DNA from: Squalus acanthias
Lineage: Eukaryota
Assembly (NCBI GenBank): GCA_030390025.1
Contig: CM059432.1
Location: 64,544,001 to 64,608,000 of the forward strand
DNA length: 64,000 bases
Reading direction: 5' to 3'
The notes below the pieces were generated by a model. The model saw only the letters and a list, made by a program, of their open reading frames with translations, had not been told where the DNA came from and made no database searches. Shown piece after piece: positions 19,270 through 64,000 of the stretch. The translations under genes and the position numbers were made by a program. How positions within the stretch are numbered: position 1 is the stretch's first letter; every line of letters starts with the position of its first letter.

Positions 19270-19620
19270 GGTTCTCCGCCTCCTCGCTGCCACCACTGCT
19301 CCAGTCTGCGCTCTCTCTGGGCCTCCCGCTCAATTTATCCTCTGTCTCCTCGCTGCTGCTGTTGCTCCGGTCTACGCTCTCTCTGGGCCTCCCGCTCGGT
19401 TTATACTCCGCCTCCTCGCTGCCGCCGTTGCTCCGGTCTGCGCTCTCTCTGGGCCTCCCGCTCAATTTATCCTCTGTCTCCTCGCTGCTGCTGTTGCTCC
19501 GGTCTACGTTCTCTCAGATCCTCCCACTCGATTTATAGTCCGCCTCCTCACTGCCGCCACTGCTCCGGTCTGCACTCTCTCAGGGCCTCCTGCTCGGTTT
19601 ATCCTCCACCTCCTGCTGTC
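19270..19620. repeat. 66-bp tandem repeat, ~5 copies, upstream of CR1 ORF1
   Basis: CGCTCTCTCTGGGCCTCCCGCTC recurs at 19309, 19375 and 19441, with further diverged units after that. Confidence 0.9.
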
Positions 19621-25758: not shown

Positions 25759-27129
25759 ATGGACGTATCTGCACTCTACACCAATATCCCCCACGATGAC
25801 AGCATCGCTGCGACAGCCTCAGTACTCAACACCAACAACAGCCAATCTCCAGACGCCATCCTACAACTCATCCGCTTCATCCTTGACCAAAATGTCTTCA
25901 CCTTCGACAACCAGTTTTTTACCCAAACACACGGAACAGACATGGGGACCAAATTCGCACCCCCATACGCCAACATCTTCATGCACAAGTTCGAGCAAGA
26001 CTTCTTCGCTGCACAGGACCTCCAACCAACGCTGTACACCAGATACATCGACGACATCTTCTTCCTTTGGACCCACGGCGAAGGATCACTGAAAGGACTA
26101 CACGATAACATCAACAGGTTCCATCCCACCATCAAACTCACCATGGACTACTCCTCAGAATCGGTTTCATTCTTGGACACACGAATCTCCATCAAAGACG
26201 GACACCTCAGCACTTCACTCTACCGCAAGCCCACGGACAACCTCACGATGCTCCACTTCTCCAGCTTCCACCCTAACCACGTTAAAGAAACCATCCCCTA
26301 TGGACAAGCCCTGCGAATACACAGGATCTGCTCAGACGAGGAGGAGCACGATGGACACCTACAGACACTGAAAGACGCCCTCGTAAGAACGGGATATGAC
26401 GCTCGACTCGTCGATCAACAGTTCCGATTGGCCACAGCGAAAAACCGCATAGACCTCCTCAGAAGGCGAACACGGGACACAACCAACAGAGTATCCTACG
26501 TCGTCCAGTACTTCCCCGGAGCGGAGAAACTACGCCATGTTCTTCGCAGCCTTCAACGTGTCATCGATGACGACGAACACCTTGCTAAGGCCATCCCCAC
26601 ACCTCCACTACTCGCCTTCAAGCAGCCGCCTAACCTCAAAAGTACCATAGTTCGCAGCAAATTACCCAGCTGTCAGGAGAACAGCGACCACGACACCACA
26701 CAACCCTGCCACGGCAACCTCTGCAAGACATGCCAGACCATCAGCACAGATACCATCATCACACGTGAGGACACTACCCACCAGGTACATGGTACATACT
26801 CATGTGACTCGGCCAACGTTGTCTACCTCATACGTTGCAGGAAAGGATGCCCCGGAGCATGGTACATCGGCGAGACCATGCAGACACTGAGACAACGTAT
26901 GAACGGACACCGCGCAACAATCGGCAGGCAGAATTGTTACCTCCCAGTCGGGGAACACTTCAGCAGTCAAGGACATTCAGCCTTGGATCTGCGGGCTAGC
27001 GTCCTCCAAGGCAGCCTTCGAGACACACAACAACGCAAAATCATCGAGCAGAAACTGATAGCCAAGTTCCGCACCCATGAGGACGGCCTCAATAGGGATC
27101 TCGGGTTCATGTCACGCTACAGAACGTGA
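25759..27129 (+). CDS. Penelope RT plus GIY-YIG endonuclease, 5'-truncated but uninterrupted (456 aa)
   Basis: MDVSALYTNIP, GTDMGTKFAP, RYIDDIF, YRKPT, C-x4-C-x2-C linker, NVVYLIRC...WYIGET...RMNGH. Confidence 0.9.
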   Translation: MDVSALYTNIPHDDSIAATASVLNTNNSQSPDAILQLIRFILDQNVFTFDNQFFTQTHGTDMGTKFAPPYANIFMHKFEQDFFAAQDLQPTLYTRYIDDIFFLWTHGEGSLKGLHDNINRFHPTIKLTMDYSSESVSFLDTRISIKDGHLSTSLYRKPTDNLTMLHFSSFHPNHVKETIPYGQALRIHRICSDEEEHDGHLQTLKDALVRTGYDARLVDQQFRLATAKNRIDLLRRRTRDTTNRVSYVVQYFPGAEKLRHVLRSLQRVIDDDEHLAKAIPTPPLLAFKQPPNLKSTIVRSKLPSCQENSDHDTTQPCHGNLCKTCQTISTDTIITREDTTHQVHGTYSCDSANVVYLIRCRKGCPGAWYIGETMQTLRQRMNGHRATIGRQNCYLPVGEHFSSQGHSALDLRASVLQGSLRDTQQRKIIEQKLIAKFRTHEDGLNRDLGFMSRYRT

Positions 27130-42010: not shown

Positions 42011-42427
42011 CCACCATCTACAAGGCATAGGTCAGGAGTGTGATGGAATACTCTCCACTTGTTTGGATGAGTGCAGCTCCAACAACACTCAAGAAGCTGA
42101 ACACCATCCAGGACAAAGCAGCCCGCTTGATTGGCACCCCATCCACCACCTTAAACATTCACTCCCTCCACCACCTGTGTACCGTGGCTGCAGTGTGTAC
42201 CATCTACAAGATGCACTGCAGCAACTCGGCAAGGTTTCGTCGGCAGCACCTCCCAAACCTGCGACCTCTATCACCAAGAAGGACAAGGGCAGCAGGTGCA
42301 TGAGAACACCATCACCTCCAAGTTCCTCTCCAAGTTATACACCATCCTGACTTGGAAATATATTGCCATTCCTTCATCGTTTCTGGGTCAAAATCCTGGA
42401 ACTCCCTCCCTAACAGCACTGTGGGAG
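42011..42427 (+). mobile_element. LINE 3' fragment that hosts the provirus; continues at 58724-58856
   Basis: VRSVMEYSPLVWMSAAPTTLKKLNTIQDKAARLI...WNSLP. Sequence is continuous across the GGAG TSD and ends ...CACATCCCAGGAACGAATAAAAAAA. Clade not assigned. Confidence 0.75.
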
Positions 42428-43161
42428 TGTAGGATAGAGTGTACCTGTAGGATTTAGTTAGCATTATTAAGATTGTATAACCATTTTTATATAACTATAG
42501 TATGTGAACTTGTATGTTAAAAACCTAAAAAGTCTGTATAAAATGGTGAATGGCTGAGACCAAAGCAGGATGGGATATTATGCCAAACTGACTAAAAACC
42601 TCTGTTATAAATTACTGAAGTAATGGAATGTTGTGTTAAGTAAACCCAGAGAGAGTAGGAGGCATGGAATTCAGTATTGTTATGGAAAAGAGATAGAAGT
42701 TGGAGACAGCCTTCATTTAAGAAGCTGCAGAATAGACAAACTGTTTAGAAAACACCTCAAGGATGTTCTGTAAAGCTCACAGTAGAAAAGGGGAGAGAAT
42801 CATAGACCGTACTTGTGAAGGTCAGAATGGTGAGATAGCCCAAGCAGCTGCAAGTTGCTATGTATCTTGAAGGGAAAAAAGGTATAAAGGAACAGCTATT
42901 GAACACTGGAAGCAGCGCGAAACCAGAGGATGAGAAGCTTCAGTCAACAGATCACAGCAAGAGAATAAAGAGACTGCGTCACAGTCACTCGGAAGGAACG
43001 CCGGGGTTCAATGAACAGACTGCGACTATCTTCTTGTTAAGTATTACTTCTTTGTACTGGATGTTTAATGCTTAATAAACCTGTTTTACTTATACACAAT
43101 ATACCTGTACCCAGAGTGGTTTGTGTAGTTATGGACAAATTATTATAAAGAGCTTTTAAAA
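42428..43161 (+). repeat. 5' LTR of provirus
   Basis: Direct repeat of 57992-58717. TATAAA at ~42883 and AATAAA at ~43074. Confidence 0.95.
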
Positions 43162-43162
43162 T

Positions 43163-43180
43163 TGGCACCCATCGTGGGGC
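43163..43180 (+). promoter_or_regulatory. Primer binding site, tRNA-Lys(CUU)/Lys1,2 type
   Basis: TGGCACCCATCGTGGGGC versus the canonical Lys1,2 PBS TGGCGCCCAACGTGGGGC (16/18 match). Confidence 0.88.
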
Positions 43181-43352: not shown

Positions 43353-45003
43353 TGTAGAATTCGCAATATATCGCGATTTTATAAATAAGGAGAAAACACA
43401 TAGTTTCGTTCAAACAGCTTTTATTTCAGCAGAATGCTGTCAGGTTTTCAAAGTGGACACAAGCAGCCTGTAAAATGGCCGCCACGCCTCGTGGCAGAAC
43501 ATTCTAGACCTTTCGATAGGCAGACAAGATGGCGTTCCAATAAACATTTGTGCAAGATCGATCAAGACTAAGCACATTTAAGATAATACACGAGACATCA
43601 TGGGTTTGCAGTATACACATAAATACTGAAATCGGTCTCCCAGGTGCGAATAAGGGCTATTGTACCAAGTAATCAAGAACCCATCCAAAGACATTAATAT
43701 GCAAAATCCCAACGACTCTACGATGAGAGAGCCGTTAGCGGGTGGTTACAGAAAACATTTGGAAGCCCCAAAACCCCTCCAGGGAGAACACCGACCGATT
43801 AAACAATGGGAAAAGTATTAACAGGTACTCAGACAATTACGAGTATCCCCGAAACCCATTAAAACGGAGATCACCCTATACAAGAAATTTGAGCGCCAAA
43901 CCCTAACAAAAGAAAAGACATTAAGGTTGGGCGGGAAAAGGGAAGAGTTTGCACTATAACTGCAAGCTCCAACCGTCCATCTTTCTCTTATCCTTTCGAC
44001 TCCGTGCCGTTTGCCTCGTGTCTCTTTTCAAAAGACTGTTGAACTTTACGATCCGCCCGGATCTGCCTCGTGGCGTGCCGCGAAGATCCGTGTGGAACTG
44101 GGCTGTGAAGCCTTGAAACGGACGCACCATCCCGAGAAGTCGGTAAACGGTGTTGGAACCGAAGGCCCGAGATGAGATGAGATGAGATGATATGAGATGA
44201 GATGAGAAGAGAAGAAGAAGACCATACGTATCGCCACGGTCAGTAAACTCCGACCGCGCCTGTAGGTCGAATAGACATTTTCCTTGCCCAGGAAGACCAT
44301 CTTTGAATTTTACAGAACAGCCAGGAAGACTATTCTTCGAATTTTATCGCATCAGTGCGAGGGCACAGGAAGACTCTTTTTTTGAGTAGAGTCGGAACTC
44401 CGAGGACAACACAGATCTTCATGACAGCAGACGTTCCAGCCTGCTAGCCGGAGCAGAAACGAGTAAACAAGTGGGGTACAGAGACCCCTGATCGACACGT
44501 GGGTGATCAGGTGCTGCGGTGAGTTTTCGGAATTCTCCGAGTTATCACGAGTGGTGAGCATGAGTCTCGATCCTACAAGTCTAGTTTAGAGCAGATATTG
44601 ATAGGGGAGGGTTTAAGTTTTAAGGATAATTGTAATGTGTGCCCCCATTTACGATGTGTCGTTCGTTCCTCGTTTCCCTGAAATTAGTTACATAACTGCG
44701 TGTAAGATTGTACTGTCATTAATCTGTGCTTATGACATGTATTTCGTAATCTTGAATAATATGCAATAAAGATTTTCCATTTCGTACCATTCAACCGGGT
44801 CTACCTGAGTTTTATCTCCATTACTGCTCTCGCATCTAAGTCCAGTGTCAGAACCGTAAGGGCGAGTGGGTCGAACCACTCACAGGTGTCTAGTGCTCCC
44901 AGACTGGCTGGAGACCAGAACAGGCAATAAGGCCTAAACTCGTACTAGCATCCAGGCTGCACAGAGCCACACGAATCTCACAGGTTCAGAGAAAACCCTT
45001 ACA
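43353..45003 (+). mobile_element. Solo LTR, family A (1651 bp), inserted at the start of gag
   Basis: TGTAGAATTC ... CCCTTACA with ATGA TSD at 43349-43352 and 45004-45007. (ATGAG)n at ~44170, AATAAA at 44765. Homologous to 29858-31485. Confidence 0.87.
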
Positions 45004-45869
45004 ATGAAGAAGTGCGAGGATGCACAGTTACAGACGTTAGTAGTAGAATGTCTAACAAAGGATAAGAGAGTACCCTTTGAGGACATTGTTGCGTTCATTG
45101 AAAAACAAGTCAAGGAGAAGAGATGGAAGCCAGATAGGGCTGTGCAGCTAATGGCTTATGCGGCAGTGTATTGTGTAGAGCAAGATAAAGAGACCTTCCT
45201 AGAGATGGAAAATAATAAAACCAAGTTAGTGGACAATCAGGATAAATTAGAAAAGGACAAGCTACGGCTGATAGAAGAGAATCAAACGTTAATGGAGGTA
45301 ACAAAAACGTTAACGGGTGAGAAGTCAAAATGGGAAAAAGAGGCTGTAGAGTTAAAAAGTAAGACTGAAGTTCTTCAGGGCCTGGTCGGTGCTTCGACAG
45401 CAATAATACAGCAACAGAGTATTAATGCAGTTCACGTCAGCGCTGCAATGCAGAACATTGAGGAGGCTAGGTGTCAGGTAGCCTCCTTAACAAAAGACAA
45501 TGGGGGAGAAATTCAGTATCGCCCCGTTCAGGGCGCGATTATCGGTCAGGCGCAAAGTTTAGCGCCTGCCGCTAATTATCACCTCCGACTGCAAACTTGT
45601 CTTTTATCGCCCCTGGAGGTGATTGGAGCGCTAAATCAGGCGCTGCACACCTGTCTTAAGGTGCAAAGGCCGATGAGCGAGGCACTAACTTAGAGCGCGG
45701 GCGCAGCGCAGCGCAGGTGATGGCAATTAGCGATGGAACACAGACACACTGGCACCAGACAGTTCTTAAAGGGGGGGGGGTCGATCTTGCTCTCCAGCCA
45801 CACCCTGCTCATTGGAGCCTTGAATCTCGGCCTGGAGAGACCTGGGACTACATTTTCCAGCCAAGGACT

Positions 45870-47617
45870 ATGGAGAGGGTGAGAGAACGAGCTCAGCACT
45901 TCAGCGAGCGGGCCTTGGAGGCTCTGGTTGGCGCGGTGGAGCATAGAAGATCTATACTCTACCCTGAGAGTGGCAGGAGGCCTTTGCCGCGCGAGTACAG
46001 AAGAGTGTGGAGGGAGTTGGCTCAGCACGTCTCCTCCAGGAGCATGGTGACCAGGGCCCATATACAATGTCGCAAAAAGTTCAACGACCTCACTCGGGTC
46101 GTCAGGGTGAGTGGCTTTTTTTCAATACCTCTCCATCCCTCCATCTCAACCTCACTCTATGGCCAATGCCCAACACTCACCCAACACCTATGGCCCTCTC
46201 ATGAAACACAGACGCACATTCCACACTTTGCGTACAGCAAGAGCTATTCAATTATGGGAGGCACATCAGGCAAGACCATGGCTGTATATCTACTCAGACG
46301 CCATCCTTTTTCTTGCAGGCCAAGCTATCTCATAATAGGAGACAGCAGCAACGGACGGGTGGAGGGCGGCCTCAGCTGCAACTCCTCAGCGATCTTGAGG
46401 CGCGCGTCCACAGGATTGTGGCAAGCCAGGTGATCGGTCCCGTCGCCCCTAGAGAGGCTGAACCCGTTCTGGTCAGCAATGGTAAGGTCATCACCTTTTT
46501 CTCCTCTCTCATTCCACTTGTCCCTCACAACACCAGCCTTTGACACTTACAATCCAACTTACTAAATCGCTGCACTCCTTCCTCCCTTACTGCCCCCCTA
46601 TCCTGACGCTAAAGCCACTCTTGTACCTCCCTGCTTTCAGATGGTGATTCACCAGCTGAGGAGACGGGCCCTCAAGCTGCCAGTGGGAGTGAAGCTGCAG
46701 GCGAGGAGGAAGAGGAAGCCGGAGCATCAGCGCCACCCTCTCCCGAGGAAGCCCATGCCCACACTGGGAACACGTCTTCCCTGGAGGGGAGCAGGGGGGA
46801 AGGGGCTGATGAGGGTGAAGCTCCAGGACCCAGCGGGCTACAGCAACGCGATGGAGGTGGGGAAGCTCGGGGGCCTTCTCCCCGGAGGAAGAGTATGCCA
46901 GCGAGTCGTGCTGCACTGGACGCAGAGGAGGAGCGGCTCATCGCTGAAATGAACACCCAGGTGGTGCACATGCACACTCAGCTCATGGGTACAGTGGGAA
47001 GGGTGCCCAAATGCATTGAAGCACTGGCAAGGAGTGTGGAGCACTTCGCTGCAGCACAGGCGGATGCCACGCTGAAGCTTAGTGCTGCAATTCAGTCACT
47101 GGCTGTCATGACCCCATCTCAGACTGCTCTCATGCAGACTCAGATTGAGGTCACGCAAGCACTGACTGCTGCCATTCTCGCTGGTTCGGACACATTGCCC
47201 CGGGGTTCTCACCGCGCTGCAGCAGGCCAGCAATCTGTGCTCCAGCAGATTGCTCCGGATGCTGAAGTGCTGCCCCGTGGGAGTACCAGTGTGTCGGTCG
47301 AGCAGGGAGTTGCTGTCCTCTCTCAAGATGACAGCATTCCTGCTGCCACCACTGTCACTTCCCCATTGCACTTGCCACCGCCTGTAGCCCAGACTGCTGC
47401 CGCCCATGCAGAGTTGGTGCAGTCTGCAGTCAGGCCCTCCAGGCCCAGAGCTGGTCAAGGCCGTCCTTCAAGGGCATCTGCAGTCTCAGGTTCTGATAAT
47501 CAGAAGCCTTCCACCAGCCTTGCTGCAGCTACTGGGGCCCCATTACGGAGGAGCAGTAGGGTGGGAAGGGGGGAAGTGCGCAAGGGAAGGAGATCACCCT
47601 CGAAGGACAAAAAGTAG
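45870..47617 (+). CDS. Harbinger Myb/SANT-like protein, 3 exons (45870-46106, 46319-46481, 46641-47617), apparently intact, 458 aa
   Basis: GT-AG introns (phase 0 and 1); the spliced frame is open throughout. MERVRERAQHFSERALEALV...W...IQCRKKFNDL; RTGGG; basic C-terminus. Confidence 0.82.
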
Positions 47618-47928
47618 GAGGTGTGACGAAATGTTGGTCAATTTTTTATTAAAGGCCGAGGTTCGCGTTCAAACTTTTGTTTAGTGTTTTGGACATTATC
47701 TCCAGGTTGTGAGAACCAGTTATGTTAATGAATGATTTTTTGTGTTTGTTTCTATTAGTTTGTCATGAAGAAATGACACTCACATAGTTTGTAAAATAAA
47801 TATGTTTTTGTATTCAAAATGTACATGTTTGGTCTTTGGACTCATTGCTTCCTTGGCTGGCTTAGGGGTTGCGGGTTGGTTTCATTCATGTTGTTCTCCA
47901 TGGCAGAAGCCATTTCCTCAGCAGGGGC

Positions 47929-49100
47929 CTAGAAGCGGCTTGCTATCAGCTGTTGACGGACGGCCCTTGCAGTTTCAACATTGTGGGCCGCCCTCCTGCC
48001 TTGGTGCTGCTGATGATCATCCTCCTCCTCTTCCTCCTCCTCTTCCTCCTCCTCCTCCGGTGGTGCTCCAAGGCCTGGTGGCATTGGCTGGGTCCTGAGG
48101 ATTGCCAGATTATGCAGCATGCAGCACACAACTATGAAGAGGGAGACTCGCTCAGGCGAGTATTGCAGGGCTCCTCCTGAATGGTCCAGGCAGCGGAACC
48201 GTTGCTTGAGCACGCCGATCGTCTGCTCAACGATGTTCCTGGTGGTGAGATGGCTCTCGTTGTACCGCAGCTCAGCAGGGGTGTTGGGGTTATGGAGCGG
48301 TGTCATCAGCCAGGTGCACAGTGGATAACCCTTGTCCCCGAGGAGCCAACCACTGATGCGGTGCTTGGAAAAGTTCTGGCACAGCAGTCTGGCGCAGGAT
48401 GAATGCATCGTGGCTGCTGCCAGGATAGCGGACATTGACAGCGAGTATCAGCTGTCTGTGGTCACAGACCAACTGGACGTTTAAGGAGTGGAACCCCTTG
48501 CGGTTGCGGAAATCCTCTGCATTCTCATGCGGTGCACGCAATGCCACATGCGTGCAGTCAATGGCGCTCTGCACCATGGGGAAGCCCGCTAACCTCGCAA
48601 AGCCCAATGCGTGTTCATGCTGTTTGGCTCGGGTCATCGGGAAAGAGATGTACTGGCGTCTCCTTTTATAGAGGGCATTTGTGACCTGATGGATGCAGCA
48701 ATGGACTGCGAACTGGGAGATATTGGCGATGTCCCCAGTAGCTGCTTGAAAGGAGCTGGTGGCATAAAAGTTCAGAGCCACTGTCACCTTCACTGCCACC
48801 GGCAGAGACATCCTGGTCCTCAGTAGAGGCTGCAGACCTGGCTGCAGCAGGTGGCAGAGTTCAGTGACCACCTCTTTGCTGAAGCGCAGCCTGCGCAAAC
48901 ACTGCTCCTCAGACAAATTAATGTAGGAGAATTGTTGGTGAAATACCCTGGGAGGGTAAGGTCTCCTGTACAGAGGCCTGTTGGCCCTCCTCCGTCTGGC
49001 CATGATTGCCACTCTCTCTCTGCGTCTATGTTGCATCCGAATCTGCAGGCGCAGTACGCCGCCCCAAATCAGTGCAGCCCCAAGTCTCTTGGCAATCAAA
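47929..49100 (-). pseudogene. Harbinger DDE transposase, one frameshift near 48355
   Basis: [74 protein letters not shown]. Start codon uncertain. Confidence 0.92.
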
Positions 49101-50992
49101 GTCATGAAGGTCAAATCCAAAAGTACCTGCAAAGTGATGCTCAGTAGCCAAAACTACTTCACACAGCGTTGACTCTGTGCAGAAGTCTCTTCTTCTCTCT
49201 TTCAGAATCTCTCTCTCTGTCAGAATGAGTGGTGCAAAAATGTCTACCACAGAAAAAGCCAGGAAGAGGCCGCCTTTAAATAGCGCCCCCCCAGCCCCTC
49301 ACCGACTGGGAAACGTTCCAGTCTCCCTGTCGTTGCTTGCGCCAGGCGGAAAGGAGGGGGGTGCCACTCAATATCTGGTCAGGGGCGCCACAAGGGTGTT
49401 GCATGCTCGACTGACGTCAAGATCTGCGGGCGCAGGAGATCGGGGCGGTACTGTTTAGCGCCGCCGCAAAATGTCTGGTCAATTTCGCGAGCGACGCAGA
49501 CATCGCCGCACCCGGGCGCTAGTTGCTTTGCGCCCCATTAGCGCCCTCTTAAGGCGCTAACGGGAGGCGCAAACCAACCGAATTTTTCCCCCAATGACTG
49601 TCTTACCAGACAATTAAATGATTTACGAGGAGCCCTAAGAGAGGCTCTTCAGCACCCCCAAAGGGAGTTGGACCACAGGCAGTGTCATATTACTATACAA
49701 CAGTTGGAAAACCAGCTGGGTGAAGAATGGGCTGTAATAGCAGCCGTCACGGGAGTAGACCCCCCTGCGAGTTATGATAAAGAATGCAAGGAGTTAAACG
49801 GAGAACTATATCCTCCCTTGCTACCCCATTCCCAAAAGGCCCCCGTCTCGTATGCCACCATCGACCTGGCTAAGAGGCCCCCAGCCTAAGCTGATAACAA
49901 TATCATAAAAGCCTCAGTGGACGAGCCTGCACCTGTTAAAGCCCCAGTTAATGTTCTGACTCACACCCAAGTGGTTCCTAACGCGCCACCAGCTGCTGAC
50001 GGGTGACCAGGCACAAGCAGGAGCACAACCAGAGGCAGCCCACCCGGGAATGCTGTGGGCGGGTACTTATGAACGATCCCAGCCCCTGAACTATGCAGAA
50101 CTACAGGCATGTGTCCAGCAATTCAGACCAGTTAACCCACGAACATGCCCCATAGAGCTAAGGCAACGTATAGTGGGGTTCCGGAATTACCATCCTAATT
50201 TTGAGGACAGTGACATGAAAAATGTTATACTGTCTGCCTTGACTCCGGACCTACAGACCAGTCTCCCATTCATGGCCTTTAATGTGGGGCCTGAATAACT
50301 TAATCCCAACTATACAAACAGCTCTGGGCTTGGACACTATTGATCTGGTTCAGAAATTAAGCCAGTCTCAACAAGGGCCTCATGAGACCCCTGCTGCATT
50401 CGGGGATCGGTTGTACACTGTTTATGAGATGATGCAGGCACGCCCCAATGATAATGTCTTAAACGAGAAGAATGAGGCAGCATTTAAGAAAATATACTTA
50501 AAGAATATTCAGGCCTCACTGCGAGCAGCCTTAGGGCACACTGTCAGCCACAACTCGCAATGGACAGACCTGTTAAGAGACGCTAACGCTGCATGGGCCT
50601 ACGCTAAAACTCAGGTCCAGGTACCAACAGCAGAGACACCAGTGCATGTAGTTGAGGGACCCCAGGCCTCCCCAGTATCACCACCCGGTAAGCAACCCTT
50701 GATATGTTATAACTGCGGAAAGGTGGGACACTTTGCAAAGGATTGCCAAGGTCCTAGACAGACAGGCTCTGGAGGTGGGAGGAATAATAATAATTACTCG
50801 CGATTTGGTCCGTCCCATTCACTCAATCCAATGGAGAGTAAAATAGATGCCCTAGGCTCATGTATGGAGAGAATGTCATGTATTATGCAAACTCTTGCAT
50901 CGACCCAGATGTCGGGGTGCCCCGTGGCTCCAACTATGAGCTCATCATTCCCGCCCCCACCATTGCCCCAACAACCCAACGGCCCACAATGA

Positions 50993-53900
50993 TGGGGCCC
51001 GGCCCCACCGGCCTGGTCTGAAGTGGGGTTCAGACGAGATGGTCATGGTCGACCGGTGGTCTCAGATTTGCTGCCTGGGGGCCGACAGCAGACGATGCTA
51101 ATAGACACCGGTTCATCTGTTACAATCCTGCATTCCCCAGACCCGGAACGCCAGCTTGAATTAGGCAAAAGTAGCTTCGTAATAACAGGAGTCACCGGCA
51201 CACAGGTACCAGCATACCTGGGAAAGGAAGTTAGTATTGTCCTGGGTACAATCCCCGTAAAAATCACCGATCCATTATTTATGTGTATGACAAACGAAAT
51301 GGGAATACTTGGCAATGACACCCTACGGGGAATGACAGTCATTATAGATTACAATCAGAACTGATGTGGGTTGAGTCTAAACCAGGAGATGTCGTGCAAA
51401 TCTCAGACGCCCACTCGGTGTTTGCTATAAAGAAGCTTGAGCAGATAGCGCTGCCAACACATTCCCTGCCTGCCGTTAACTCCTTAGTAACTAAACACGC
51501 AGCAGCCTTTGCTAATCTAAACACGACTGTGGGAGAATGGAAGGGGAAACGCAAATTAATGGGCCACCCCATCGCACATGTAAACAATACCCGATTCCCC
51601 GGGAAAGTATTCCGTATTTGCAAACAGTCATTGCCTCATTAGAAGAACAGGGAGTACTCCGCAAACCACCAATTCCCCTGCATGGCCGGTTAGGAAGCCA
51701 GATGAATCCTGGAGGCTTACTATTGATTACCGAGCCCTAAACAAAGCTTCCCCACATCAGAGTCCGACTGTTAGTCAAGCCCCTTCGCTACTGACATCCA
51801 TACCCCCAAAAGCTACTGTCTTCTCTACCCTAGACATAGCGAATGGTTTTTGGAGTATCCCAGTTGCTCAGGAGGACCAGTACAAATTTGCTTTCACATT
51901 TGAGGGGCAGGGCTACACGTTTACGTGTTTACCGCAAGGGTTTCATAACTCACCATCAATCTTTCATCAGTATATGGCACGAGCAGTTAAAGACTTTTCT
52001 AAACCATCAGCCCTTCTACAGTATGTTGACGACCTGCTCCTGGCTACCGAAACAATGGAGGAACACCTAGAACTTCTAGATGAGTTGATAGGGTTAGTAC
52101 AGAAGGCAGGGCTAAAAATAAATCCAAAAAAGACTCAGCTGGCAAAAGATGAGGTTACCTTTCTGGGAGTAAAGATTTCAGCGACCGGCCTTAGTCCGGA
52201 CCACCAAATAGTAGAGACTATTCAGCGACTCCCATTGCCAGTTTCGAAGACCGCACTGCGATCCTTTTTAGGCTTGGTTGGATATCAGTGAAATTTTATT
52301 CTGAACTTTGCAGACTTGGCTAAACCTTTGTATGATCTTTTAAAGGGCGATGCGGAAGAGATACAATCCGTATGGGAAGACCACCATACTGCTGCAGTTA
52401 GTGATTTGAAACAAGCCACGATGCAGGCTACTGCTCTCATTTCCCCGGATCACAGCCAGCCCTTCCATCTTGAAGTAGGCTCCACCCCTACCAGCCTAAC
52501 TGCCATTTTAAGTCAGACCCAAGCAATCAGCGAGACACTACGCCCCATCGCATACGCCTCATGTATCTTACGAGGGGTAGAAAGCACATTCTCAGCATGT
52601 GAGTGCCACCTGTTGGCCACATTTTGGGCAGTCAATCATTTTATTTATATCACCGGACTGCAAAAAGTGATTTTGCATTCACCACACACGCCCCTTAATC
52701 TGCTGCTAAAACCAAGTGAGACTGAGGTGTCCTCTCAGTGAATCAGTAAATGGACACTTGAATTGTTACAGCGAAACCTGGACATTACTCCTAAACGAAC
52801 TACACTGTTACCTCTTATGCTCGCCTATGAGGGAAGCCCACACCAGTGTCCATTACCAGTACTAGATATGGAACCAAACCCGGTAAATGCCAATGCCATA
52901 TCTGGAGCTCGAAATGTGTACGTAGATGGATCATCATACTATGTAGACGGCCATCCTAGAACTGGATGTGCCCTCATTGATATGGATGCTCCTGATTGGT
53001 CAGTGGGATTCCAGGTTCCCGCCCACTCCTCCCAACAAGCAGAACTAATTGCTGTAATTCTTGCTGCTCACTACACGACTACGGATGAAACTAATATCTG
53101 GTCTGACAGCAGCTATGTCTGTATTGCAGTTATGGCCCTTCCCCTATATCATACAAATGAGTTTTGCTCATCAGATGGTGAATCTTTATTACATTCTGGT
53201 CTCCTCTGTAAGCTATAGAAAGTGCTCCAGGAGCGAGTCGCTCCATTTCATGTAGGAAAGGTAGCAGCCCATCAGAAAGATTCATCTCCCCACTCCCGAC
53301 GTAACCAGGCAGCCGATCGTCTTGCTAAGGAAGCTGCTGAGAATGGCTGTCTATTGCCTTGGTGGGTGATGAATGACACTCAGACGCCTGTAGTGGGGGC
53401 GGTAACTAAAACCAAAACCATTGATCTTTTGGCCCTACAGGATTCACACGCTCCCTATGTGCAAGTAATAGCCTGGCATGAACAGGGACACCCATTACCA
53501 GCACCCACCCCATGGGCAGACTCAACTGTAGTACAACATGGTGCGGATAAAAACCCTCCCCTGCTAATGGTCAGGAATAAAGAGGGAGACTTAGTAGTTT
53601 GTATTCCTCCTCAGTTGAAGGAAGAAATTCTGTCCCTCTTCCATTCTCACCCGACAGCGGGACATTACTGAGCGGCCACTACACTACGAAAGTTATTACC
53701 CGTTTGCTGGTGGCCTGAAATGGAGCAGCATGTGGAACAATGGGCCAAAAATTCGGCACTTGCCGGGTGAGTACGTACTGTGTACTCACCCGTAAGCCCT
53801 CCTGAAGTGCCGGTTTCCTGCATGCACTGCGCATGCGCCGGAAACCGGAACTTCCGGTCTCGTGAAGGGAGCGGTTCAGAGGTGAACCGCGTGCACGGGA

Positions 53901-55440
53901 GAGGCTGCGCGCACGCAGCGAACTTAGGTTTTTTTTCAGGTTTCTCCGGGAGGTAAGTATGAAAAAGCTGCGTTTTTAAAAAGGAGGCGCAAGACCCGTT
54001 TTTAACAAGGTAAGTGGTTAATTAATTACAATTTAAACATTTTTTCAACAGGTTTATCTTTTTTAGATACTTTAAAGAAAGGTAAGTTTATTTTTAGCGC
54101 TGTTAAAAAGTATTTTAATTTTTTCAAAAATTTTAATTTTTGTTTAAAGTAGTTAATTTATTTAACTTATAGTTATTTTAAAAATGTGATGGTTTTTAAA
54201 AAAAATTATTTGAAGTTTAGGTGTTGTTTTGGGGCCGATTTCAATTCATAGATTTGACCGGTCTTCCTGTCAAATCTATGAATGAAAGATGGTCTGCTGC
54301 CATTGACTCTCCATGGCCCACGTGATCCCAGGGGACGCATCGCACTAACTACGCCCCTGGGATACACAAGCACTGCGCGCCGGCAGCTGCAAGAGGCCCA
54401 GGAGCTGAAGTCCCCGTGGGCCCAGAGGTCAACAGCAGGCGCGGTAGGTAGGTACGCGCGGGATCCTTGCACCCGCGGGAAGCCAGGGAGCCTAATTTCT
54501 GGGCCAATATGTTAATCGCTGCCTGCCCTGCCTACAAACAAACCCTCCTTCATGTTCTAATCGTGCCTTGCTTAGGTCACAGCCCCCCCCGAGGGACCAT
54601 GGACACACCTACAGATTGACTTTATTGGTCCGCTAACAAAATCCAAGGGTAACTACGAGTATGTACTCGTTGATATTGATCAGTTCACTAAATGGATCGA
54701 GTCATATCCCACAAGAAACAATAAAGCGCGCACTGCTGCCCTGAGTGAGGTGTTCTGTAGGTGGGGATTACCACTACAAGTGGATAGTGATCAGGGTCCA
54801 CACTTCACGGGGGCAGTTTTCACAACCCTACAAGAAATGTTACAGATAAAACATAAATTGCACATTGCGCACCATCCACAATCATCAGGGATTGTGGAGA
54901 AGGGGAATCGAACTCTAAAAACAATGCTGCAGAAGCTGTGTACAGAACACCCCACTCAGTGGACTAACATGTTGCCCTTATGTTTGATGGCAATACGTTC
55001 TACCCCACACGGGACTACGAGGGTAAGTCCATATGAGGCTATGACTGGGAGACAAATGCGGATACCAGGACACGTAACATTTGGGAAATAACACACCATT
55101 AAAGTTACACCCTTGTAGCCAAAAATGGTTACAAACCTTGATAGATCATATGGACGAGATGAACAGGCTGGTGGCCATTAACATAGGCAAATCGCGTGAA
55201 CAAATCAAGCGATATTATGATAAGAGAGTAAAACCATTTGAGTATGAGGTTGGGGACCAGGTAATGTTACTAAATTTCTCTCCAAAAAAACACTCATTCG
55301 AGGTAAAATGGACGGGCCCTCATACCATAGTAGATAAACTAAATCCAGCTGTGTATCTACTGAATATTCCATATGGTCCGAAGGGAGAACCTAAACTGAA
55401 ATGGTTCCATATCAATCAGATGAAAACTGTTAAGAATTAA
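50993..55440 (+). pseudogene. pol: pro-pol: aspartic protease, RT, tether, RNase H, integrase
   Basis: LIDTGSSVT; LDIANGFW, LPQGFHNSP, QYVDDLL; RPIAYAS tether; VYVDGS/QQAEL/IWSDS/NQAADRLA; HSHPTAGH...CLPC; LQIDFIGP, SDQGPHF, HHPQSSGIVE; WTGPH. Multiple stops and frameshifts. Confidence 0.95.
53742..54505. mobile_element. Harbinger-type MITE inserted in the integrase zinc finger
   Basis: TIRs GGGCCAAAAATT ... AATTTCTGGGCC with an AAT TSD. Removal gives WWPEMEQHVEQYVNRCLPC in frame. Confidence 0.9.
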
Positions 55441-55473: not shown

Positions 55474-57948
55474 ATGTGGCTCTGTATACTGATATTGATG
55501 ATTGGATGTGCAGTGAGCTCTACAGAGGTAACAAAAACTTTTGACATTACCATCAACATCTGTACACCGGATCAAGGAGGTGAATGCACCCCACTCCCCA
55601 TCTATGGAATGGAGCCTCAAATTGTTGGCGGACATAAACAATCAAAGAACCAAAGTGGTTCATCTGAGACATATGGGGGGAATGTTCCGGTTTGGATCAG
55701 AAACAGTACAAAAGATAATGTAACAACAACATATGTGACGGGTTGTGGTATATTACAAGAAAAGGTGTATAGTTAGGAAATAAAAGAAGGATATGGTGTG
55801 TGTATCAGGTGCGGGATAAGGGACAGCAAAGGCCCAAATGTGTGGAAATTCCGAAAGAAAAATAATGGAATCTGGGAACAGGTACAAGAATCAAACCAGG
55901 GCCCAGTAGCTTCAGAGAGCAAGGAATACGTACAATTATGTTGGCCTTGGTGGTGGAAGAAACACACCGGCCAGTATTCTTGTATTGGGTCAAATATTAT
56001 CTCGGACCTTAAAAATCAGGGTGATGATTGGCCTCCTATCCCCGAAGATAATATAAAGATTACCTCAGCAGGGAATTAACCCTTTGTGACAACCTTTAAA
56101 CGTTGGGGAAATTATAGGGACCCTGAGAATGAGGATAGCAGCATCGTAGAATTCAAAAATGCAATAACTGGATGTGTAAGGGAGGATGGGTATTTCTATA
56201 GCGTTAGGCTCACACCCTTTGAGAAAACAAACCATTCAGAACCCAAGAGGGAGTACTCGCGAAACAATGCCCCCACTTAAAACCTGGACCTGGGAATGGT
56301 CTTGTAATTATCCCTACCTATAAAGCAGTGTATCATCAAGTAATACCAGAAGTGGCCCCTGTTATCCTCAATTTAACAGACCAAATACTACCAAAGTGGT
56401 GCCCTGACAAAACAGCGCAATTAACTCAAAGAATGCTGCAGCAGGTTTTTAGCCAATAATGGAAAAAGGCGACTTTGTTGACGAGCATAGAGAAAACAGA
56501 AGGGGCCTTCCACCACGAGCTTAGTACCGCTCAAGAGGAAAGCCAGGGAAAGAGTAGACAGAGAAGAGGATTGATAAATGATGGGCTCACAGGTTTCAAC
56601 ACAGTAACCTCAGTAGTTAACTCAATGGATTCCGCAGATTTACAGAGACAATTACAAACGGTAAGGGAGAAATTGAAGGAGATACTCAGTAAGGAAAGCA
56701 GCATAGAAAGCGAGGAGCTAAGGGAGGATCTGGTAATGACCATACACCTGCGGGACATCATACACGAGTTAGAGGATCATGCCAAAAGAATTAATGAACT
56801 GATTAGAGAAAACAGAAATGCCTCTGATCAAGCAGCCCATCATGACGTATGCATTATGTATGGGAATTGGCTGATTGAGCAAACTAGGGAAAACCTTCAG
56901 ACCATCAATAAGGGATGTCTCCCCACTTGGGTCACGAATAAACACTTATCAGGGCTATCCAGTTATTACGATGATGCAGAACTATGTAAGATCAGAAGTT
57001 TGATTAGGATCCACCCCTGTCAAACACGAATGCCACGAGGTAGGGAGTCAAAGGTTGATGGGACTAATACTGCAAATTCCTAGTCTAATGAATCGAACCA
57101 GGCCCAGCCCCCTATTTAGAATAAAGAATATAGGAGTAGTAAAAGGAAATACTATTAACCGATTTCTCACGGCACCACAATGGTTAGTACAGTTAGAAAA
57201 ACTAACATGGATTGAACCAAACCTACAAGGATGTAACACAAATGAGGATGCCCTTGTTTGCCCATACAGTTTGTATCATCATTCAAAGGACATCTGTGGG
57301 AATGAAGAACAGTTAAACTGTACTATGGAAGTGACAGGCTCCTCAGTTGTAAGAACTAGATCAGCCTACATACGAGAAGGGAGGTATTGTTTTACCACTT
57401 TAGAAAACTCTTAGAATCACGGAACACTTGAATGTTCAATAACCCCAGGGACCTACTGTATCACACCTACAAAGACTACGGTAATAGGAGGAAAAATTCT
57501 CCTTGCAATAGCCTCACATGACCAGCAGGTATTACAAGTAGAAGATAATTTAAATATAAATCTAGAAGGTTATGTCACTAAATTCGGATATGATATCCCT
57601 GAGCTACCTGAAGCCTTAACCGAATTAATAAATCAAGTGAGCACCTCCCAACGCCATTATTATACACTGGTGCAAAGGAATAAAGCTATAGCCAAGGAAA
57701 TTCCAGGTATCGAAGATCAAACACACTGGTGGGACATAGGGACAAACATGGAACTTCCTCCTTGGATTAGGATAATTTCCCATGTACTGGTCAAAGCCCA
57801 ACTTGTAGTACTGATATGCTTACTATTCTACACCTGCTACCTGAAACACCTAATGTACGAAACCCGATCACGTTTAAATATGATCACAACCCAGAATATC
57901 TTAGAGTTACATAAACGTAGGAGAACAAACCCACATGTAAGATTTTAG
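55474..57948 (+). pseudogene. env: env glycoprotein (signal peptide, SU, furin site, heptad region, Cys-rich region, TM)
   Basis: MWLCILILMIGCAVSS signal; RQRR|GLIN at 56556-56567; hydrophobic IISHVLVKAQLVVLICLLFYTCYL near the C-terminus. A candidate splice acceptor (CCCATAG) lies just upstream of the ATG. Confidence 0.88.
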
Positions 57949-57991: not shown

Positions 57992-58723
57992 TGTAGGATA
58001 GAGTGTACCTGTAGGATTTAGTAAACATTATTAAGATTGTATAACCATTTTTATATAACTATAATATGTGAAATTGTATGTTAAAAACCTAAAAAGTCTG
58101 TATAAAATGGCGAATGGCTGAGACTAAAGCAGGGAAATTATGCCAAACTGACTAAAAACCTCTGTTATAAATTACTGAAGTAATGGAATGTTGTGTTAAG
58201 TAAACCCAGAGAGAGTAGGAGGCATGGAATTCGGTATTGTTATGGAAAAGAGATAGAAGTTGGAGACAGCCTTCATTTAAGAAGCTGCAGAATAGACAAA
58301 CTGTTTAGAAAACACCTCAAGGATGTTCTGTAAAGCTCACAGCAGAAAAGGGGAGGAAATCATAGACCGTACTTGTGAAGGTCAGAATGGTGAGATAGCC
58401 CAAGCAGCTGCAAGTTGCTATGTATTTTGAAGGGAAAAAAAGGTATAAAGGAACAGCTATTGAACACTGGAAGCAGCGTGAAACCAGAGGATGAGAAGCT
58501 TCAGTCAACAGATCACAGCAAGATAATAAAGAGATCGCGTCACATTCACTCGGAAGGAACGCCGGGGTTCAATGACTGTGACTATCTTTTTGTTATGTAT
58601 TACTTCTTTGTACTGGATGTTTAATGCTTAATAAACCTGTTTTACTTATACACAATATACCTGTACCCAGAGTGGTTTGTGTAGTCACGGACAAATTATT
58701 ATCAAGGGCTTTTAAAAGCTACA
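57992..58723 (+). repeat. 3' LTR of provirus (732 bp)
   Basis: TGTAG...CTACA, preceded by the short purine tract AAGGTAGGGA and followed by the GGAG TSD. Confidence 0.95.
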
Positions 58724-59563
58724 GGAGTACCTTCACCTCAAGGACTGCAGCAGTTCAAGAAGGTGGCTCACCACCACCTTATCCAGTGCAATTAGGGATG
58801 GGCAATAAATGCTGTCCTTGTCAGTGATGCCCACATCCCAGGAACGAATAAAAAAATATATTAAAAAACAATCAAACATTAATGCCTTTCAGGCACATTC
58901 CTCCTACAAAGTATGGGTCAATCCACAACAAACAGTATTTACATAATGCTTTTGTCTTGAAGATATTTACAGTTAATTATTCTGCTGGCAATTTATAATT
59001 CATAATACATGTAAAACTATACTGAAATCTTTATTGCTGAGAATTTTGTAATTTGCAGTTGAGCAGGATCTAGGCTGAATAATATCTTCAAGCCAAACTC
59101 CAGTGTCAAATTGATGTGAGAAAATCTGCCTTTAATCTTATCCGGTAATACTTACTGGCAGTCTGAATTTTAATTCTGTCAGCTGGGCATAGAGTGTGGA
59201 CTATGAGAAAACTGGTTATTAAAATGTTTGATGCTTGTCTTTGACATGAATTACAATTAACATAATATATCAAGTCATCACAGTCTCAAGATGATCACCA
59301 TAAAAAGGTTACACTGATGAGTTTGTAATGATTCTGAACTTTTAGTAACATCAACAGATCAAGTGGCCAATATTATGCTTGCTTTTTCTTTAATGGATTT
59401 CTGAGTTCTATATTTTTTATCAGTAAAAGCGAACAAGTGAGTGATGGTGCAAATCAGGTTATCAATTTGTGCGAACATTAGTTCTCAGGTATCAGGCTAG
59501 CTTCCAGTTTTGCAGTCAGCTAAAAACAAAAGTGGGCAGAATTTTATAACTCGCATACACTAA

Positions 59564-62253: not shown

Positions 62254-64000
62254 TGACGCGGAGATGCCGGTGTTGGACTGGGGTGGACAAAATTGAGAGG
62301 TCGCACAACACCAGGTTATAGTCCAACAGTTTTATTTGAAATCACAAGCTTTCGGAGCTATCGATTTGCTCCTTCCTCAGGTGAAGTAAATTAGATACAG
62401 AATCTCCAAAGCATATATAGATGGAAAACAAAGCATGTGTACTTTACAATTGCAGACCAATAAATTAAATCATCCTGACTATCTGCCGAGGTGTGATAAA
62501 GTTAATTAAGTCAGCCAGGAAGGTACCACATCAAAGACATAGCAAGATACAACTGAGACAATGAGGTGTAGTCGCAGGGGTTCTAACGTGTCAAAAGCTG
62601 CCGTCTGTATGTAAAACGAAAAGCTTTAACATTTTTTTACTTTTTTACTGGGAAAATTTTTACTTTTTTACTGGGAATCACATCTGTGAACAAGCTAACG
62701 ACGACTCGAGTCCGGATCACGTCATGTATCATGACATAAACCCAAGATCCCGATTGAGACCGTCTTCATGAGTGCGGAACTTGGCTATCAGTTTCTGCTC
62801 GATGATTTTGCGTTGTCGTGTGTTTCTAAGGTTGCCTTGGAGAACGCTTACCCGCAGATCCGAGGCTGAATGTCCTTGACTGCTGAAGTGTTCCCCGACT
62901 GGGAGGTAACAATCCTGCCTGGCGATTGTTGCGCGGTGCTCGTTCATACGTTGTCTCAGTGTCTGCATGGTCTCGCCGATGTACCATGCCGCGGTGCATT
63001 CTTTCCTGCAACGTATGAGGTAGACAACGTTGGCCGAGTCACATGAGTATGTACCATGTACCTGGTGGGTAGTGTCCTCACGTGTGATGGTGGTATCTGT
63101 GTTGATGATCTGGCATGTCTTGCAGAGTTTGCCATGGCAGGGTTGTGTGGTGTCGTGGTCGCTGTTATCCTGAAAGCTGGGTAATTTGCTGCGAACGATG
63201 GTACTTCTGAGGTTAGGCGGCTGTTTGAAGGCAAGTAGTGGAGGCGTGGGGATGGCCTTAGCGAGGTGTTTGTCGTCATCGATGACATGTTGAAGGCTGC
63301 GAAGAACATGGCGTAGTTTCTCCGCTCCGGGGAAGTACTGGACGACGTAGGGTACCCTGTTGGTTGTGTCCCGTGTTTGCCTTCTGAGGAGGTCTATGCG
63401 ATTTTTCGCTGTGGCCCGTCGGAACTGTCGATCGATGAGTCGAGCGTCATATCCCGTTCTTACGAGGGCATTTTTCAGCGTCCGTAGGTGTCCATCGCGT
63501 TCCTCCTCGTCTGAGCAGATCCTGTGTATTCGCAGGGCTTGTCCATAGGGGATGGCTTCTTTAACATGGTTAGGGTGGAAGCTGGAGAAGTGGAGCATCG
63601 TGAGGTTGTCCGTGGGCTTGCGGTAGAGTGAAGTGCTGAGGTGTCCGTCTTTGATGGAGATTCGTGTGTCCAGGAATGAGACTGATTCTGAGGAGTAGTC
63701 CATGGTGAGTTTGATGGTGGGATGGAACATGTTTATGTTATCGTGTAGTCTTTTCAGTGATCCTTCGCCATGGGTCCAAAGGAAGAAAATGTCGTCGATG
63801 TATCTGGTATACAGCGTTGGCTGGAGGTCCTGTGCAGCGAAGAAGTCTTGCTCGAACTTGTGCATGAAGATGTTGGCGTATTGGGGTGCGAATTTGGTCC
63901 CCATGGCTCTTCCGTGTGTTTGGGTAAAAAAATGGTTGTCGAAGGTGAAGACATTGTGGTCAAGGATGAAGCGGATGAGTTGTAGGATGGCGTCTGGAGA
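62254..64000 (-). mobile_element. Penelope-like element (relative of 25431-27453), runs off the window end
   Basis: pLTR 62254-~62700 with hammerhead core at 62342-62380 (minus: CUGAGGA...GAAAGCUUG). Confidence 0.92.
62729..64000 (-). CDS. Penelope RT plus GIY-YIG endonuclease (partial, open to the window edge)
   Basis: MGTKFAPQYANIFM, RYIDDIF, NVVYLIRC, WYIGET; highly similar to 25759-27129. Confidence 0.9.
   Translation of the reverse strand, partial: SPDAILQLIRFILDHNVFTFDNHFFTQTHGRAMGTKFAPQYANIFMHKFEQDFFAAQDLQPTLYTRYIDDIFFLWTHGEGSLKRLHDNINMFHPTIKLTMDYSSESVSFLDTRISIKDGHLSTSLYRKPTDNLTMLHFSSFHPNHVKEAIPYGQALRIHRICSDEEERDGHLRTLKNALVRTGYDARLIDRQFRRATAKNRIDLLRRQTRDTTNRVPYVVQYFPGAEKLRHVLRSLQHVIDDDKHLAKAIPTPPLLAFKQPPNLRSTIVRSKLPSFQDNSDHDTTQPCHGKLCKTCQIINTDTTITREDTTHQVHGTYSCDSANVVYLIRCRKECTAAWYIGETMQTLRQRMNEHRATIARQDCYLPVGEHFSSQGHSASDLRVSVLQGNLRNTRQRKIIEQKLIAKFRTHEDGLNRDLGFMS

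Follow-up and report, generated by a model that had tools for sequence, protein, structure and literature searches.

The last gene of an endogenous provirus of Squalus acanthias, at 55474–57948 of the 64-kb stretch of DNA analysed here (64,000 nucleotides, hereafter the window), raises the question of what kind of fusion protein it once encoded. A first-pass annotation had taken this envelope protein (Env) for a non-orthoretroviral one, with a post-cleavage subunit resembling F proteins and spuma-type class I fusogens, and had called it a fossil fusogen linking these families. Sequence comparison across the 64-kb window places env between two long terminal repeats (LTRs), in the following arrangement.

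42428–43161, forward strand: 5′ LTR, which starts with TG and lacks the six bases with which the 3′ LTR ends
43163–43180, forward strand: primer-binding site, presumably tRNA-Lys-like; similar sites are found by pattern in two of six sister copies
43353–45002, unstranded: nested insertion in the leader, missing in four of six sister copies, with related repeats elsewhere in the window
45003–45502, forward strand: 5′ part of gag, rich in coiled coil (from Pfam and sister-copy comparison)
45503–49592, unstranded: Harbinger-type DNA transposon within gag, with a Myb/SANT ORF on the forward strand and DDE_Tnp_4 on the reverse; missing in all six sister copies
49593–50992, forward strand: 3′ part of gag, with one CCHC knuckle and an in-frame TGA at its end, before the protease
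50993–55440, forward strand: pro-pol, broken, with an RVP-type protease, reverse transcriptase (RT, YVDD), tether, second RNase H and integrase
55474–56267, forward strand: 5′ part of env, with the signal peptide and an additional N-terminal region that likely binds a receptor and shows a weak Ig-like signal only
56268–56567, forward strand: env pre-cleavage, F2-equivalent segment, with two conserved cysteines, a long β-strand and a helix; the furin motif RQRR ends it
56568–57948, forward strand: env post-cleavage, F1-equivalent subunit, with fusion peptide, long HRA-like helix, Cys-rich β domains, HRB-like helix, TM and short tail
57992–58723, forward strand: 3′ LTR, which ends with CA and is followed by GGAG

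The two LTRs are 95% identical (24 differences over 725 sites, K2P 0.034) and are framed by a 4-bp target-site duplication, GGAG, at 42424–42427 before the 5′ LTR and at 58724–58727 after the 3′ LTR. Pfam recognizes zf-CCHC, RVP-type protease, RT, tether, RNase H and integrase along the provirus. Compared with six sister copies, the window provirus carries three nested insertions, the Harbinger element in gag included, and its native length would therefore be about 9.8 kb; an insertion of about 760 nt sits in pro-pol at 53742–54504. Only 43 nt separate the end of env from the 3′ LTR.

The Harbinger element (45503–49592) has an 83–85% identical relative at L047 423–4664, upstream of an env copy of a second family. 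Insertions 76–80% identical to the roughly 750-nt element in the integrase (53742–54504) occur in two sister proviruses (L042 7887–8631; L043 3905–4641 and 7988–8617); the L042 copy occupies a nearly identical site in inverted orientation, which hints at a target preference. At the gag/pro junction (50990–50992), an in-frame TGA is found in the window and in all six sister copies (L041–L046), and it is followed by C in four of the six, as TGA-CGG in three and TGA-CAG in one. UGA-CGG is a leaky readthrough context; the usual readthrough stop of retroviruses is amber. Elsewhere in the window, an RT ORF whose C-terminal part is endonuclease-like, and which we take to be Penelope-like, occurs as two inverted, 94% identical copies (62729–64000 on the reverse strand and 25846–27129), and a tandem repeat with a 66-nt period lies at 19274–19603.

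The env gene begins with an ATG at 55474 and a signal-like stretch. All the motifs that the first-pass annotation had pointed out are found in it: RQRR at 56556–56567; from 56568 on, the fusion-peptide-like GLINDGLTGFNTVTSVVNS, whose mean hydropathy of 0.45 agrees with its description as weakly hydrophobic; LILQIP, LFRIKNIG, PNLQGC and LVCP, all after the cleavage site; and a TM segment at 57772–57828 (hydropathy 2.37). The post-cleavage part measures 1378 nt or 459 codons, close to the 460 first estimated. In-frame stops at 55774, 56077, 56457 and 57412 interrupt the gene, as do frameshifts near 56244–56274 and 57016–57023; the motifs are therefore spread over more than one frame, and the copy in the window cannot make the protein.

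Env is more than a chance open frame, because at least 150 matches to an env piece were scored across the 3.7-Gb genome, forming a close group and a 35–40% group, because the database holds 54 homologues, and because its cysteines are conserved: 11 of the 14 in the aligned query frame are kept in 84–100% of aligned rows and one in 53%, the two of the TM and tail not being kept. Twenty of the 54 homologues were looked up and 18 of these named, in sharks, a skate, the coelacanth and frogs. Two word-index protein searches with env gave no match. Over ten sister env frames (347 codons), picked for being open and analysed with no transition correction, pN/pS is 0.15 for shared and 0.34 for private changes (Fisher p 0.003), a difference that fits selection on env during the spread of the family.

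In the second large family of this genome, env is about 35–40% and RT about 61–70% identical to the window; within 10 kb upstream of its env no RT was found in either of the two copies examined, so that env and RT are not linked there. Three gene models (P0095, P0101 and P0090) join env pieces to a cadherin-like gene, fbxo15 and a Niban-1-like gene, which may reflect faulty annotation or exonisation of env. Long Env ORFs that are almost identical to one another are numerous in frogs (16 members in Mantella, 32 in Discoglossus and 3 in Bombina; clusters of P0109, P0123 and P0130), and recent activity of these relatives is therefore suggested.

Does env belong to the gamma-type envelopes? The CX6CC motif had been reported missing at first pass, and neither CX6CC nor CX5CC occurs in any of the three forward frames of 55474–57948; among 52 env-family rows the CX6CC pattern appears in two, both times within the TM helix. 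In Pfam, the six window env pieces and 12 sister frames matched neither TLV_coat, the gamma-type family named beforehand as the match that would speak against an F-type reading, nor any other Env family. With the homologues added, no Env or F family rose above the cut-off; Fusion_gly had no match in any env-family member scanned, and Baculo_F gave a hint (E 0.0011) in one of 33 proteins. The env profile, run against PDB sequences, retrieved no F protein and coiled-coil noise only. The class Ia hallmarks, CX6CC and a short TM subunit, are both lacking in the window env. The class Ib order is present, with the cleavage motif followed by fusion peptide, long HRA helix, HRB helix and C-terminal TM.

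For structure prediction, the natural open frame of a sister copy (L002:1051–2745) was given to AlphaFold instead of the broken window copy. With a 52-row alignment, the monomer model reached a pLDDT of 74 and a pTM of 0.53; an earlier model built on 12 within-genome rows was unusable (pLDDT 37). In the predicted model, both subunits form the core, β-rich domains I and II come after HRA, and residues ~20–435 align with F and foamy Env. Foldseek against the PDB matched it to hPIV3 F (E 2.6e-11), NDV F (3.6e-9), RSV F (4.7e-9) and foamy Env (8.1e-7). Against BFVD, the best match was a nameless entry of 928 aa, A0A384ZVF2 (E 7e-16); baculovirus F (1.9e-13), WEHV1 Env (1.2e-8), WDSV Env (1.1e-6) and feline foamy Env (7e-6) were found as well, and arthropod mononegavirus glycoproteins were also among the matches. 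This ranking, with F first, then foamy Env and baculovirus F, agrees with the layout proposed at first pass, and the AlphaFold and Foldseek check it had called for listed no gamma-type TM among the top matches.

A search independent of Foldseek gave the same picture. In its first pass, 9 of 48,161 chains scored Z ≥ 8 and rows 1–15 were all F or foamy Env, including NDV F (Z 11.2, rmsd 17.1, 346 aligned) and prefusion foamy Env (Z 9.1, rmsd 5.8, 281 aligned). In the second, hPIV3 F reached Z 12.9 (rmsd 12.3, 333 aligned) over model residues 21–431, pre-cleavage strand included; the residues before the cleavage site, from 21 on, align with F2. Among the fold matches listed, the sole gamma-type TM is EIAV gp45, matched over a 56-residue helix (Z 5.5). 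TM-scores are low (0.25–0.40) and the rmsd large, as is expected when conformations differ, yet this limits the fold claim.

Since the model is largely helical and coiled coils fill rows 16–50 of the wide search, the F match could in principle be an artefact of long helices. We hold this to be highly improbable: the F rows cover model residues ~20–435, β domains included, at Z 8–13, against at most 5.7 for the coiled-coil rows. As judged from the predicted fold, the env family is thus very probably an F-type (class Ib) fusion protein, an endogenous retroviral env that likely mediated entry in the manner of paramyxovirus F.

If it worked like F and foamy Env, whose refolding scheme we take from the pertinent passages of PMC11468914, the protein would form a trimer cut by furin at RQRR. 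The HRA segment would then refold into a coiled coil and insert the fusion peptide in the membrane of the cell; zipping back of the HRB helix would make the membranes merge. The conserved cysteines flanking the cleavage site (C58 and C208 of the model) would tie the subunits together, and the pre-cleavage segment is predicted to supply a strand of the core. The region of about 260 residues that precedes this core likely bound a receptor. Its Ig-like hints are all sub-threshold (Ig_3 E 0.046, neuroplastin E 0.48, V-set E 0.045 for P0105); the UniRef name of P0081 is a further one.

In sequence, the nearest named relatives of env are found among retroviruses. Over 36 named-virus genomes, an env-family HMM gave its two highest scores to the Envs of snakehead retrovirus (SnRV, 44.8 bits) and walleye dermal sarcoma virus (WDSV, 45.0 bits); of 16 foamy Envs, the highest-scoring one reached 19.5 bits. 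Shuffled controls stayed below: 200 shuffles peaked at 5.1 for SnRV, and 300 block shuffles at 12.7 for WDSV and at 4.0 for foamy Env. For 62 ORFs drawn from 19 control genomes with a gamma/delta RT motif (CX6CC in 18 of them), the score was at most 3.8 bits. With hhalign, the values are 96.4% for SnRV, 97.0% for WDSV and 80.2% for foamy; the WDSV HMM match includes a composition bias of 18.1. In these matches a CP..GP..G motif and the furin site fall in register, as do the fusion peptide and the cysteines further on. The two viruses (L021 for SnRV, L040 for WDSV) were identified by matching RT or RT motif to rows of the PMC7947760 supplement.

SnRV resembles the window element in its homologous Env, a Gag with coiled coil and CCHC, gag and pol sharing a frame with a stop between them, and similar RT motifs. 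It differs in the length of Env (~1130 codons of open frame, against ~820 in the window), and the window Env has a short tail and leaves no space for 3′ accessory ORFs. In the epsilonretroviruses WDSV and WEHV, Env is homologous over profile positions 12–527, lacks CX6CC, and has predicted structures that Foldseek matched to our model; its N-terminus is much longer, and the RT, which for WDSV falls within the gamma/epsilon group, is far from that of the window. The WDSV Env could therefore be retained or swapped in. The general link between F-type proteins and retroviruses is already known, from foamy Env structures (in the sections of PMC11468914 on this point), from lokiretrovirus Env (in those of PMC7947760) and from the F-type Env of errantiviruses (in those of 10.1101/2023.10.26.564294), and Viro3D (PMC12583693), in its relevant passages, expects further retroviral cases. 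The literature searched, whose coverage is incomplete, nowhere describes the Env of SnRV or of the walleye viruses as F-like, and prior mention is possible; the sequence bridge from the env family to SnRV and WDSV is possibly the new part, along with its implications for the ancestral retroviral envelope.

On which retroviral backbone does this env sit? We placed the window RT in two trees, the first with 78 of 80 database matches, two short ones being dropped, and the second with 44 chosen rows. It pairs with P0002 of Xenopus tropicalis (60% identity, support 100/98), and the pair belongs, with elements from frogs and the coelacanth, to a basal polytomy. As judged from RT sequence, the backbone is a basal lineage of canonical retroviruses, common to frogs and the coelacanth. 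It is SnRV-like in build, which does not imply a sister relation to SnRV: the RTs share 38% identity and do not group in the free tree, and forcing them together is not rejected (p-AU 0.057).

Lokiretroviruses have an Env that the passages of PMC7947760 devoted to it describe as F-like, with signal peptide, RXKR-type site, fusion peptide, coiled coil and TM, alongside a dual RNase H. The element might accordingly be a lokiretrovirus, the group extending to cartilaginous fish. It shares with Loki the F-like Env, the dual RNase H and a coiled coil at the start of gag; in the Loki Env passages of the supplement, the same LNLP..NVG..PNL..C......CP.......CG pattern can be recognized by eye; and the nearest Pol relatives are automatically named NYNRIN-like, the Loki integrase being close to CGIN1 according to the part of PMC7947760 that treats it. 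Against this, the window RT reads LPQGFHNSP where Loki RTs have CPFGY[AS]NSP, a branch of 1.36 (support 100/100) separates it from Loki, and its nesting within that clade is rejected at a p-AU of 2e-51; the cartilaginous-fish genomes in those tables of PMC7947760 that we drew on are unmarked for Loki. We therefore rejected a lokiretroviral identity, which is very improbable. With RT apart, env or integrase may still have been captured from Loki by recombination.

A foamy-like element is another candidate. The best PDB sequence matches of the RT are foamy RTs (143 bits), in a database that holds no SnRV-like RT to compete. The presumed Lys-like primer-binding site, the 4-bp target-site duplication and the structural match to foamy Env point the same way, and Env might be a foamy Env without the inserted receptor-binding domain (RBD). 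Shark and Xenopus hosts would fit the foamy-like group of CmiFLERV and XtrFLERV, for which PMC5512871, in the portion bearing on these elements, reported only pol. Grouping with foamy RTs is weakly rejected (p-AU 0.02) in a tree whose foamy rows are seven mammalian ones, shark and fish FLERVs lying outside it. Further against it are the CCHC knuckle, the RVP-type protease, the in-frame gag–pol stop, the N-terminal signal peptide and the 43-nt gap between env and LTR; measured against a foamy control, the element lacks the spumaretrovirine A9 protease, knuckle-free Gag, Foamy_virus_ENV match and accessory genes after env. The Envs themselves are alike in predicted core fold and, weakly, in sequence in the β region. 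They differ in that foamy Env, of class Ib, has an N-terminal TM and an RBD inserted between N-SU and C-SU, as given in the structural sections of PMC11468914, whereas the extra region of the window Env lies N-terminal to the core, after the signal peptide, a coronavirus-like placement. On balance, we think a foamy-like ERV unlikely, and keep to the basal lineage shared with frogs and the coelacanth.

Another reading is that env was captured late from a mononegavirus or a baculovirus-like source and has no bearing on the ancestral retroviral Env. In structure, paramyxovirus F and the glycoproteins of arthropod mononegaviruses do take the top scores, ahead of foamy Env, and the passages of PMC9040795 on Loki prefer independent env gains. 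The F proteins of paramyxo- and pneumoviruses, baculoviruses and errantiviruses are the best structural matches and share the F2/F1-like order of parts; they are 10–15% identical to the window Env, which differs from them by its extra N-terminal region and retroviral context. By sequence, homology extends to the Envs of SnRV and WDSV and, weakly, of foamy viruses, but to none of the solved F proteins, and the env family is found in sharks, a skate, the coelacanth and frogs, the hosts of the RT relatives too. Late capture is in our view doubtful.

The env of the window is a single, dead copy, F-type on a basal retroviral backbone. The description of it as not orthoretroviral holds for the gamma/beta type of Env; it does not hold for the subfamily, as the two best named-virus Env matches, SnRV and WDSV, are in Orthoretrovirinae, where the taxonomic passages of PMC12193657 place the walleye viruses and, as an unclassified member, SnRV. 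As for a fossil fusogen linking several families, the F-like fold stands, and the link itself had been published before.

In its sections on classification, PMC11468914 assigns the Env of orthoretroviruses to class Ia and takes the structural gap as support for the foamy/ortho split; four scenarios for the origin of retroviral Env are left open in the corresponding discussion of PMC7947760. In one possible history, somewhat less likely than not, the F-type fusogen is the ancestral retroviral Env, kept in foamy viruses, Loki, the basal lineage of sharks, frogs and coelacanth, and two extant orthoretroviruses of fish, namely SnRV and the epsilonretroviruses of walleye. The split between classes Ia and Ib would then run off the ortho/spuma boundary, the gamma/beta Env would be a later replacement, and the env family described here would serve as the sequence bridge. 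If SnRV, WDSV and a basal ERV lineage all carry a class Ib Env, the order "F-type first, gamma/beta-type later" becomes testable, and two of these viruses, SnRV and WDSV, have already been studied in the laboratory. The F-type entry machine is perhaps more widespread in retroviruses than usually stated.
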